Shown here: positions 63,020 to 64,000 of the stretch, one piece after another
Numbering within the stretch: position 1 is the first letter of the stretch
How the letters are laid out: every line of letters starts with the position of its first letter
Assembly (NCBI RefSeq): GCF_024298765.1
Contig: NZ_CP101210.1
Direction: 5' to 3' (one strand)
Length of the DNA stretch: 64,000 nucleotides
Source of the DNA: Escherichia coli
GTDB lineage: Bacteria > Pseudomonadota > Gammaproteobacteria > Enterobacterales > Enterobacteriaceae
Translations under genes and position numbers: made by a program
Notes under the pieces: model-generated
Told to the model about the DNA's origin: nothing
Database searches by the model: none
Seen by the model: the letters and a program-made list of their open reading frames with translations, nothing else

Positions 63020-63685
63020 TTACGTGGGTAGGATCACTAAGCCAGGAATTAAGTCATTTAAAGATATTTCAAATTCACTGGCAATCGTATCTAATCCTTC
63101 CTTATCAATAGATTCAAGCCATAAATTATAATCAATAGGAAGAAGCAACGGATGAGTAAAGTTCAATCTATTTACTAAAGATGATTTAGTATACTCATCA
63201 TTACTTAGCTCTCCAATAAATTCATTATTTATAGAAACAGCATAGTTCTTTATATATGCTGCTCTGTGCAATTGTGACCATGCGATTTTAAACTCTACAT
63301 AAACCTTTTCAGTTTCATCTGCAATGTCTTTCATTTTTATAAAATGAATATCGAAAATATCACCAAGTTCTTCTAAATATGTTTTATATTCTACACCTAT
63401 TGTTTGTTCAGGATCGAAACCGATACCAATAGTAATTACATTATTCAGATCCCCATTATGGACTAGAGATCTAAATCCATCTATGCGCCTGTTCCCCATA
63501 GCTTCTAAATATATAGGATCACACTGCTCACGGTCTAATATTTGTTGAAGATAAAATAATGCAATTAAAATAGTAGTCTTGCCCGCGCTGTTTGGCCCCA
63601 ATAGTAATGTTACAGGTGCAAAATCAATTTCCTGCCGCTCTCTAACAGATCTGAAATTTTCAAGTACAAGTTTAGTTAATTTCAT
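63020..63685 (-). CDS. ABC-type (AAA_15/AAA_21-like) ATPase, N-terminal 221 aa; reading frame terminated inside IS3 right end (likely truncated)
   Basis: MKLTKLVLENFRSVRERQEIDFAPVTLLLGPNSAGKTT Walker A; stop codon lies within the IS3 terminal sequence; AT-rich. Confidence 0.6.
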   Translation of the reverse strand: MKLTKLVLENFRSVRERQEIDFAPVTLLLGPNSAGKTTILIALFYLQQILDREQCDPIYLEAMGNRRIDGFRSLVHNGDLNNVITIGIGFDPEQTIGVEYKTYLEELGDIFDIHFIKMKDIADETEKVYVEFKIAWSQLHRAAYIKNYAVSINNEFIGELSNDEYTKSSLVNRLNFTHPLLLPIDYNLWLESIDKEGLDTIASEFEISLNDLIPGLVILPT

Positions 63686-63693
63686 AATGAACC

Positions 63694-64000
63694 TTACATG
63701 AAATATTTATTCGATAGGTTTGATGCTAAAAGTTGAAGTTGCATTGCGCTTTTATCATAAATGCTTAGTCCTTTTTTTATTTTTTTATAAATAATCTCAT
63801 ACTCATCTTGTAGATGCTTAGGTGGGATTAATATCTCTATATTCTGCAATTCCTGTGCATTAATATTAGCCATGCCAACAATACTTTTACACATATTCAT
63901 CAATGTGATTTTGCCATGGATGGAATTAAGATACCCTGAAATATAGTAGTTATTTCCGATAGAATTAGGTCTAACGCGGATTAAATATCCAGCAAATGCC
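63694..64000 (-). CDS. Type I restriction-modification specificity-subunit-like (HsdS-like) gene, 3' portion; continues beyond window
   Basis: Minus-strand frame open to the window edge (..GYLIRVRPNSIGNNYYISGYLNSIHGKITL MNMCKSIVGMANINAQELQNIEILIPPKHLQDEYEIIYKKIKKGLSIYDKS..); ILIPP..Q..EI motif and coiled C-terminal tail resemble HsdS; stop 9 bp before ATPase start. Confidence 0.45.
   Translation of the reverse strand, partial: AFAGYLIRVRPNSIGNNYYISGYLNSIHGKITLMNMCKSIVGMANINAQELQNIEILIPPKHLQDEYEIIYKKIKKGLSIYDKSAMQLQLLASNLSNKYFM

Follow-up and report, generated by a model that had tools for sequence, protein, structure and literature searches.

An IS3-truncated ABC ATPase gene behind hsdS in Escherichia coli, the probable remnant of an ATPase/nuclease defence module

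Features at the right end of the window

The DNA analysed was a stretch of 64,000 nucleotides (nt) from the Escherichia coli contig NZ_CP101210.1, referred to throughout as the window. At its right end the last part of hsdS, the specificity gene of a type I restriction-modification (R-M) system, is followed on the minus strand by the first part of a gene encoding an ATP-binding cassette (ABC) ATPase, and this gene ends within an insertion sequence (IS) of the IS3 family. In intact relatives the ATPase gene is complete and is followed by a partner gene encoding 298 amino acids (aa); the pair, its loss from the window and its probable function are described here. The features of the junction are listed below, L001 being the intact locus of strain W2-5.

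63694..64000, minus strand: 3' end of hsdS (type I R-M specificity subunit; last 101 codons and stop), identified by a Specificity_I match
63686..63693, minus strand: hsdS-ATPase spacer, 8 nt (GGTTCATT), read from the sequence
63038..63685, minus strand: native codons 1-216 (of 540) of the ATPase gene, from alignment with L001 and Pfam AAA_15
63020..63037, minus strand: fusion tail VILPT and stop, from the right end of IS3, found by comparing the open reading frame (ORF) with the intact protein
61782..63036, plus strand: IS3-family element, 1255 base pairs (bp), inverted repeats TGATCTTACCCA / TGATCCTACCCA, from the sequence and annotated in relatives
61838-62143 and 62140-63006, plus strand: IS3 orfA and orfB, respectively, from the ORF list
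61712..61781, no strand assigned: orphan fragment of ~70 bp between IS1 and IS3, a pseudogene remnant in RefSeq
60944..61711, plus strand: IS1 element, 97-98% identical to the IS1 in L001 and annotated as IS1 in relatives

The hsdS frame is open from the window edge (63999) down to its stop at 63694, a length of 101 codons. The fragment matched the PADLOC profile Specificity_I (E=5e-35, profile positions 288-389 of 392) and NCBIfam PRK09737 (E=4e-6) and was 100% identical to genes annotated as 'restriction endonuclease subunit S' (WP_000742120 / WP_021527169). These matches bear out the HsdS-like C-terminus that had been proposed at the window edge in an earlier, sequence-only reading of the same DNA. 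That reading had also placed the two genes 9 bp apart; the close spacing holds, but as the hsdS stop ends at 63694 and the ATPase ATG lies at 63685, the spacer is 8 nt long, a counting difference of one. A spacer of identical length is present in the intact locus (L001 12308-12315). The AAGG that overlaps the hsdS stop looks like the ribosome-binding site of the ATPase gene, and the two genes are likely to be translationally coupled.

The ATPase ORF (63685-63020, minus strand) encodes 221 aa, starts with MKLTKLVLENFRSV and carries the Walker A motif GPNSAGKT at residues 30-37; the motif, the length and the end of the frame within IS3 had all been described correctly before. Only the N-terminal beta-hairpin, Walker A (G30-K36-T37) and part of Insert-1 survive in this product, which matched the PADLOC models PDC-M55A (2e-17), AriA (1e-12), NsnB (1e-12) and GajA (4e-11). 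Where the intact ATPase reads IPGLERNK(SG), the window copy reads IPGLVILPT followed by a stop. GC content was 0.31-0.33 over positions 63000-64000 compared with 0.5-0.6 in the flanking IS elements, in agreement with the AT-richness remarked on earlier.

Truncation of the ATPase gene at IS3

The right inverted repeat of IS3 ends at 63036, which is the junction with the ATPase gene, and an 'IS3 family transposase' is annotated at the corresponding place in three related genomes (L002, L003 and L050). The window could be aligned with the intact locus only up to base 63037 (= L001 12964); the remaining 1.87 kb of L001 (12965-14834), comprising ATPase codons 217-540 and the 298-aa gene, had no match anywhere in the window. 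The triplets beside IS3 are unequal (TTG and CTA), which signifies that there is no target-site duplication. On the other side of the element, the orphan fragment of ~70 bp had no match to L001 and so was not derived from the ATPase/effector locus. The block of IS1, fragment and IS3 was also found beside the fec operon (fecI), in genomes which have a dGTPase gene as the right flank of IS3 (L004).

A simple insertion of IS3, with the remainder of the gene on its other side, was ruled out by the unrelated left flank, the missing target-site duplication and the absence of L001 12965-14834. Since there is no target-site duplication and both the 3' 60% of the ATPase gene and the effector gene are missing, the event is best read as an IS3-adjacent deletion or recombination rather than a simple insertion. 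Inactivation by IS3, as first proposed, therefore stands with respect to the cut at the IS3 end and has to be amended with respect to its mode, from plain insertion to an IS3-linked deletion. The comparison with intact homologues that had been suggested to define the loss gave a full-length ATPase of 540 aa, of which codons 217-540 are gone together with the partner gene.

The conserved ATPase motifs that follow Walker A, namely the signature, Walker B, D-loop, H-loop and DUF3696 tail, occupy residues 407-539 and are lost in the window copy. As every conserved motif except Walker A lies beyond residue 216, the predicted window product cannot be an active ABC ATPase. The module is dead in the window, and the R-M genes stay intact. 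The 221-aa 'AAA family ATPase', which RefSeq treats as an ordinary coding sequence (CDS), is an IS3-truncated pseudogene of a putative defence add-on.

It might be argued that the 221-aa product still functions, as a decoy, as a regulator of the R-M system or as a neo-functionalised P-loop protein, and that the junction is under selection. The ORF is intact and is an annotated CDS (WP_021527168) in ~13 genomes with the same junction. Nevertheless, with the signature motif, Walker B, D-loop, H-loop and effector-docking tail all missing, the product could not form a composite ABC active site; moreover, clonal inheritance would account for the recurrence of the same junction in related strains, largely from poultry. 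A second disruption, in strain 035152, also points to decay and not to innovation, and continued function of the fragment is considered highly improbable.

This second, independent disruption was observed in strain 035152 (NZ_CP101705; L051 1852-5147), where an IS1 lies between the ATPase and partner genes; the ATPase is cut to 518 aa, its DUF3696 tail is gone and hsdRMS is intact. That two independent IS events (IS3 and IS1) have hit the add-on and spared hsdRMS is a hint that the pair is costly or dispensable.

The intact locus in E. coli

A segment of 960 bp of the window was 100% identical to genes annotated 'restriction endonuclease subunit S' and 'AAA family ATPase' in 272 of 5,426 complete E. 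coli genomes, all of these copies being chromosomal. The 3' part of the ATPase gene and the partner gene, representing the intact form, were present in 259 complete genomes, and the IS3 junction of the window type in about 13-14, many of them poultry-associated. A larger set of ~148 genomes was rejected as carriers of the truncated form, as most of them have only the IS1-fragment-IS3 block.

In the intact locus of strain W2-5 the gene order is hsdR (1137 aa), hsdM (544 aa), hsdS (380 aa), ATPase and partner. The last two are annotated as follows.

L001 ATPase gene: 'AAA family ATPase', WP_000778955, 540 aa
L001 13938-14834: partner, 'hypothetical protein', WP_000499115, 298 aa

The partner start overlaps the ATPase stop (ATGA). 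In the genomes which share the junction (L002, L003, L050), hsdS, hsdM and hsdR lie just past the position of the window end and are annotated as intact, with hsdM (544 aa) and hsdR (1137 aa) directly upstream of hsdS, as they are in L001. The expectation that hsdM and hsdR would be found just outside the window is thus confirmed in genomes with the same junction. The outcome which the sequence-only reading had set against its own proposal, a full-length housekeeping ATPase of 221 aa with no R-M genes nearby, is contradicted by the 540-aa intact protein and the adjoining hsdRMS. That the 221-aa form might be the ancestral, complete gene is likewise contradicted, by the ~259 intact copies and by homologues in several other phyla.

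The hsdS genes of the junction-type genomes and of W2-5 differ in length, encoding 364 aa (WP_021527169; L002 12045-13139) and 380 aa (WP_000742120; L001 11165-12307) respectively, and their last 102 codons are identical despite this. The two proteins probably have different N-terminal target-recognition domains, and hence different specificities.

The ABC ATPase family

The intact ATPase matched Pfam AAA_15 over residues 1-136 (E=1e-12) and 354-470 (E=1.6e-7), with further matches to AAA_23, SMC_N and AAA_21, so that its earlier assignment to the AAA_15/AAA_21 type was upheld. The best PADLOC match was PDC-M55A (1.4e-40), followed by NsnB of the Menshen system (3.2e-37), HEC-03B (6.7e-25) and AriA (5.5e-22); AbiLi was matched at E=2e-10, and GajA and PtuA at the P-loop. 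NCBIfam gave only P-loop-level matches far under the cut-offs, and a sequence search of solved structures likewise gave P-loop-level matches only (OLD, PtuA). By BLASTP, the protein was similar (E=3e-13) to the HEC-03 ATPase, named 'DUF3696 domain-containing' in RefSeq, and the two have VGxGxSQ, EQPExHxHP and SHSEH in common. A DUF3696 family match is precomputed for a distant homologue (L013).

When 33 members of the family, taken from diverse bacteria, were aligned, the following motifs stood out; the numbering is that of the intact protein.

Walker A: G30-x-N-S-x-G-K36-S/T
Invariant arginine: R311
GxG signature: G407-x-G409-x-S/T-Q412
Non-canonical Walker B: E431-Q-P-E434-x-H-x-H-P
D-loop: D447
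H-loop: E464-T-H-S-E-H
C-terminal tail: G521..F523..W527-P-x-G-F-F-x-E-R..E-L, almost invariant in the 33 homologues

By its motifs and matches, the ATPase probably belongs to the DUF3696 clade (NsnB/HEC-03-like) of AAA_15 ABC ATPases. The sequence-only reading had favoured a module of the PrrC/RloC anticodon nuclease type. Such a protein would be a single polypeptide with an ABC ATPase and an anticodon nuclease that is kept latent by the R-M enzyme. The position directly after hsdS in a type I operon and the ABC fold would suit such a protein. However, a Pfam scan of the intact ATPase gave no AAA_13 match, no PrrC or RloC model was among the best PADLOC matches, and the C-terminus is a probable DUF3696 tail, the candidate nuclease being a separate PIN-like/PLD-like protein (PLD, phospholipase D). 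As AAA_13 is absent and the nuclease is not fused, membership of the PrrC/RloC family was rejected, and this part of the earlier proposal has very little left to recommend it next to the matches to PDC-M55A, NsnB, HEC-03 and AriA.

The 298-aa partner

The predicted structure of the partner (predicted local distance difference test score, pLDDT, 97) consists of a PIN-like N-domain and a C-domain of the PLD superfamily. Structure matches of the N-terminal half were to PIN domains (1y82 at 8.6, Utp24 at 8.1, SMG5 and VapC proteins at 6-7.7). This is the plan of Menshen NsnC, in which an N-terminal PIN-like domain is joined to a C-terminal effector domain of nuclease type.

A word-indexed homologue search found relatives at 74% identity or above only, and a sequence search of solved structures matched nothing. 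In an exhaustive search with a hidden Markov model (HMM), at least 1,011 cluster representatives from metagenomic protein space were recovered (E<=1e-3); almost all of them have ~300 aa and match over the full length. Conservation was assessed in an alignment of 101 sequences with 23-38% identity. R243 was invariant (101/101), H241 was present in 99/101, and M1, P9, P41, R65, R80, W90, D159, P160, H241 and G257 were each at least 90% conserved. The core motif is H241-[N/D]-R243-Y-[IVL]-L-T-[D/E/N]-x-G-G...G257-L-D, which is HKD-like in the form HxR(x)4[D/E/N]; its last position was D50/E31/N18, and D/E159 is conserved as well. Arg takes the place of the Lys of HxK(x)4D, as it does in MIT_C/PB-PLD1. 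In the predicted structure of the C-domain, D159 comes after the second strand and the HxR motif before the fifth.

The canonical four-acid PIN site is absent, only E4 and D/E8 being well conserved and the other acidic positions being below 75% or located in helices, which is consistent with the N-domain being an inactive PIN. In the enterobacterial partner D/E8 is replaced by S, W15 by I, R35 by F, W46 by N, E97 by V and W126 by L, these six N-domain residues being 65-90% conserved in the family at large; the PLD-like motif is kept. The N-domain of this clade may have changed its binding partner or specificity.

Genomic context in other bacteria

The context of the pair was surveyed in one genome per GTDB species, which gave 36 loci, together with a few metagenome contigs, by ORF calling and phmmer. 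The scan alignment samples only partners with the motif Ex[LI]HNRY, and the survey is therefore biased to that subfamily. The loci span Gammaproteobacteria, Desulfobacterota, Binatota, Acidobacteriota, Gemmatimonadota, Planctomycetota and others.

The partner lay directly after the ATPase homologue in all 39 of the 39 loci with both genes, mostly overlapping it or at most 4 bp away. In 17 of the 39 (three being near-identical contigs) hsdS was directly upstream on the same strand, with a gap of -6 to +43 bp in most; the order hsdR-hsdM-hsdS-ATPase-partner was kept in metagenome contigs (L005-7, L009) at a partner identity of 30-35%. A further seven had hsdRMS upstream but with 1-6 kb of inserted genes. 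The pair was accompanied by an RtcR-like activator, with no hsd genes at all, in 12, from which it follows that it does not require restriction. The remaining three loci were too short to classify or unlike the other classes. At least two HsdR lineages are linked to the pair, one of ~1,130 aa (phmmer E~0) and one of ~750-920 aa (E~1e-77). In a crude neighbour-joining tree of the ATPases, hsd-linked and regulator-only contexts were mixed, with some clades uniformly hsd-linked.

The RtcR-like activator has the domains Sigma54_activat, AAA_lid_14 and HTH_8; it matched NCBIfam RtcR at E~1e-95 to 1e-102, under the curated cut-off, and PADLOC 'RtcR_PspF2--CARF_AAA_HTH' at E=1.5e-153. The gene was directly upstream of hsdR in nine hsd-linked loci. 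The strict sigma-54 pattern TGGCA[CT]-N5-TTGC[AT] occurred 12 times on the plus strand across all loci, against ~0.6 expected from base odds, and 10 of the 12 matches were near an RtcR-like gene, most of them in the interval that separates it from hsdR or the ATPase gene. In RtcR-headed units with the pair the promoter is at the 3' side of the regulator gene, and its consensus form in non-enteric relatives is TGGCAC-N5-TTGCT. The positions of the sites were as follows.

Before hsdR: L017 (1888), L026 (1557), L028 (1713), L041 (1186)
Before the ATPase gene: L025 (1092), L027 (3681), L034 (3774), L044 (7057), L023 (7229)
Near-consensus sites: L032 (1859), L013 (3604)

An RtcR-like gene at the head of the unit and a sigma-54 promoter in the gap together imply that whole type I R-M and ATPase/nuclease operons of non-enteric relatives would be under sigma-54/RtcR-like control. 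Neither an RtcR-like gene nor a sigma-54 promoter was found in the E. coli locus or the window.

The link to RtcR-like activators could also be taken to favour a housekeeping role for the pair in DNA or RNA repair, as a RecF/SbcC-like ATPase with a nuclease, since the RtcR paradigm controls the RtcBA RNA repair operon and the ATPase has weak N-terminal matches to RecF, SbcC and Rad50. These repair-family matches cover the P-loop only and are far under the family cut-offs, and the closest profile matches are to defence ATPases. Only ~5% of E. coli genomes carry the pair, and its setting is a tRNA-Phe island, rich in AT, with cdiA/cdiI and IS elements as neighbours. A repair function would appear to be scarcely credible on this evidence.

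The recurrent position behind hsdS bears on a different proposal, that the pair serves the type I R-M enzyme as a guard or accessory and that HsdM2S (or HsdR2M2S) replaces the missing sensor, NsnA, of Menshen. On this view the pair would be set off by anti-restriction proteins that block restriction, or by stalling of the enzyme on unmodified DNA. The proposal as a whole is regarded as unlikely. In favour of such a role are the location next to hsdS on the same strand at -6 to +43 bp in most hsdS-adjacent loci, in several phyla and at 23-35% partner identity, the linkage to at least two distinct HsdR lineages, the clades of the ATPase tree that stay hsd-linked, and the lack of an NsnA/DUF262 gene at any locus. 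On this last point, the annotation of the E. coli locus contained no such gene, there was no match among the upstream proteins tested, and a test of the 39 loci for the DGxQR motif, which is a test of the motif only, gave no plausible NsnA protein. A response to blocked restriction has precedents in PrrC with EcoprrI and in PARIS with Ocr, and both lend the proposal some weight. The Menshen paper reports that part of the NsnA proteins have a target-recognition-like sensor domain and that BREX, R-M or methylase genes adjoin 27.9% of the Menshen operons. The 12 loci with an RtcR-like regulator and no hsd genes argue against a dedicated guard, as do the seven in which unrelated genes (PDC-S08, PDC-S32, HNH) separate hsdS from the ATPase gene. 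HEC-03 functions with its two genes alone, away from its host cluster, and unrelated, independent systems are commonly embedded in type I R-M operons, as is well documented for TgvAB, RloAB, PrrC and PDC candidates. That the pair forms an NsnA-less branch of Menshen/HEC-03 which uses the R-M complex as a DNA/self-nonself sensor or guards it against anti-restriction proteins, as part of an RtcR-inducible hsdRMS-ATPase-nuclease operon in many non-enteric bacteria, is offered as a tentative suggestion with the odds against it. If true, it would amount to an RNA-damage-induced, two-layer programme of restriction and abortive infection switched by sigma-54 and an RtcR-like protein.

Several further arrangements were seen in the survey. 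The genes inserted between hsdS and the ATPase gene include defence candidates that matched PDC-S08 (E=5e-130) and PDC-S32 (E=6e-53), and an HNH/ZorE-like protein, at the following positions.

L016 6269-7240; L033 5647-6630; L047 5841-6680: inserted defence candidates between hsdS and the ATPase gene

In one contig (L009 2863-3422), hsdR and hsdM are separated by a DUF433/DUF5615 pair. In two Acidobacteria metagenome-assembled genomes the ATPase/partner pair occurs twice in tandem (ATPase-partner-ATPase-partner; L027 3699-9912, L034 3798-9948), downstream of one RtcR-like gene, and the upstream partner copies were seen only with the family HMM (E~1e-19).

Interpretation and proposed mechanism

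Taken together, these data suggest, with a probability of roughly three in four, that the window contains the distal end of a horizontally acquired, AT-rich hsdRMS operon and the 5' 40% of a dead ATPase/nuclease defence module. The intact pair is, with equal confidence, a two-gene ATPase/nuclease defence module of the Menshen NsnB-NsnC/HEC-03 class without the NsnA (DUF262) sensor. A defence function, nuclease activity, a trigger and crosstalk with the R-M enzyme would be attributed to this particular pair by analogy with its relatives; the linkage to hsdS and to RtcR-like genes is conserved, and the truncation, homologies and folds are as described above.

Some results weigh against this interpretation. 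The Pfam DUF3696 match of the intact ATPase (residues 495-539) is weak (i-E=0.0077). The partner matched no Pfam or NCBIfam family and no PADLOC model significantly, the borderline PADLOC matches being NsnC (E=0.003) and mad2 (E=0.009) only. MIT_C also has the HxR variant, and its sole characterised member, MITD1, is a membrane binder with no proven nuclease activity. In the N-domain of the E. coli clade D/E8 is replaced by S, R35 by F and E97 by V relative to the wider family. To these are added the loci in which the pair is found without hsd genes. Finally, a literature search found no paper on the pair of the ATPase and 298-aa protein or on its linkage to hsdS or RtcR, an absence which is not proof.

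A mechanism for the defence module can be proposed by analogy with a model of Menshen NsnB4-NsnC2 and with PARIS and Septu. In AlphaFold 3 models of NsnB4-NsnC2, two DUF3696 tails surround the PIN-like domain of NsnC, and the complex resembles PtuA-PtuB and AriA-AriB, in which ATP binding or hydrolysis controls the activity or release of the nuclease. By this analogy, oligomers of the ATPase would hold the effector, with the DUF3696 tails clamping its PIN-like domain. An infection cue would change the ATP state of the ATPase, the predicted PLD-type nuclease would then be released or activated, and restriction would thereby be backed up by a further layer of defence. In the window, the putative IS3-associated deletion would have cut the ATPase after codon 216 and removed the whole effector gene.

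For the window itself this is mostly a housekeeping result, a remnant beside an intact R-M system. The intact pair, present in ~5% of complete E. coli genomes and annotated merely as 'AAA family ATPase' and 'hypothetical protein', connects current work on Menshen NsnB/NsnC, on HEC-03 and on the RtcR-headed defence superoperons. It would represent a simple system native to E. coli for the control of a PIN/PLD effector by a DUF3696 ATPase, and would permit one to ask if a type I R-M enzyme substitutes for the Menshen DNA sensor.

Surrounding island and insertion sequences

Beyond hsdR, the junction-type genomes carry cdiA and a YezG-family immunity gene, cdiI (L002 18356-21651; L050 34121-37116). 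This contact-dependent inhibition (CDI) locus is directly past hsdR, so that the R-M operon has a CDI toxin locus on one side and the IS block on the other. The island is located at a tRNA-Phe (GAA) gene (window 44933-45008) and extends over window 44933-56271. In the window and in strain ACN002 it follows dcuA-cutA-dsbD, and in the best-matching genome (XB2) the same island is at a different tRNA-Phe site, next to yqgA. The following genes were located on it.

45206-46468: integrase
46920-50435: 1171-aa 'AAA domain-containing protein'
50544-52043, minus strand: phosphoethanolamine transferase
52225-52965: outer-membrane protein
54292-56271: PhoX-family phosphatase

Insertion sequences are piled up across window 57600-63036, with the RefSeq-annotated fragment, IS1 and IS3 at the right end of the pile-up, which has taken the place of the distal part of the module. 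The other members are given below.

57611-58165: IS3-family orfB fragment
58199-59461, 59786-60133 and 60130-60531: tnpC (frameshifted), tnpB and tnpA, respectively, of an IS66/ISEc8 element
60588-60965: helix-turn-helix (HTH) gene

Three tandem tRNA-Gly (GCC) genes (window 14925-15344, minus strand) are of the ordinary glyV/X/Y type and are unrelated to the module.

Comparison with known systems

HEC-03 consists of a DUF3696 ABC ATPase and a PIN protein, both of which are required for its protection of E. coli against phage, and it sits embedded in Hma clusters (Payne et al. 2024, bioRxiv 10.1101/2024.01.29.577857). Like HEC-03, the pair described here is a two-gene cassette, ATPase first and effector second, lodged in a larger system of restriction-like type. 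The two ATPases are homologues that have the GxG signature, the EQPE Walker B and the SHSEH H-loop in common, and both systems have an effector with a PIN-type fold and need no DUF262 sensor. The effectors differ, that of HEC-03 being a VapC-like PIN protein of 157 aa without a PLD domain, whereas the partner has a PLD-like C-domain. No sequence similarity was detected between the partner N-domain and the HEC-03 PIN protein (hhalign probability 0.6%). Unlike a canonical PIN protein, the partner lacks the PIN acidic set and has its catalytic-looking residues in the PLD-like domain. The host clusters are also different, a type I R-M system or an RtcR-like regulator here and Hma for HEC-03.

Menshen NsnB combines AAA_15 and DUF3696 and has GxG for SGG, an altered Walker B dyad and Arg for the Q-loop Gln. 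The present ATPase shows these peculiarities, namely the AAA_15 core with a probable DUF3696 tail, the GxG, the Arg, and a Walker B dyad of EQ compared with EN in NsnB; they are visible in the HEC-03 ATPase too. Some NsnC proteins have an inactive N-terminal PIN (inPIN) and a PB-PLD1 domain, the latter with an acidic residue after beta2 and H-x-R before beta5 (Li et al. 2025, PMC12065111). The partner resembles these proteins in its two-domain plan and in the positions of D159 and H-x-R, its motif being HNR where that of NsnC PB-PLD1 is HDR. Menshen has NsnA (ParB-DUF262), and the upstream place is taken here by hsdRMS and/or the RtcR-like sigma-54 activator.

PrrC (EcoprrI) and RloC resemble the pair in that an ABC-type ATPase gene lies within a type I R-M operon or closes it, and a latent nuclease backing up restriction is plausible for both; they are of the AAA_13 type with the nuclease fused to the ATPase, whereas here it would be encoded by a separate partner gene. 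In the RloA/RloB-AbiL pairs the effectors RloB and AbiLii are Toprim proteins, in contrast to the PIN/PLD partner. PARIS (AriA/AriB), Septu (PtuA/PtuB) and Gabija (GajA) likewise keep a bound nuclease under the control of an OLD-type ABC ATPase. The effectors of PARIS and Gabija are Toprim (AriB and the GajA C-domain) and that of Septu is HNH (PtuB), unlike the PIN/PLD partner, and these systems have no DUF3696 tail and are not characteristically appended to hsdS. PDC-M55, the best profile match of the ATPase, is a three-gene cassette, FAM_00005>>FAM_02935>>FAM_00004 (Payne et al. 2024, bioRxiv 10.1101/2024.01.29.577857), whereas the present locus has one gene beyond the ATPase, which matches no PDC-M55 model.

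RtcR homologues have been described at the head of superoperons with type I R-M and CoCoNuT modules, RNA fragments that end in a cyclic phosphate being their proposed signal (Bell et al. 2024, PMC11090510). The pair occupies the corresponding distal place in same-strand, RtcR-headed units, often with hsdRMS between; the distal module of the RtcR-CoCoNuT superoperons is the McrBC-like CnuB/CnuC, and here it is an ABC ATPase and a PIN/PLD protein. On these comparisons of genes and predicted domains, the module is distinct from PrrC/RloC, PARIS, canonical Menshen and PDC-M55, and its closest relatives are HEC-03 and the NsnB/NsnC(PB-PLD1) pair.

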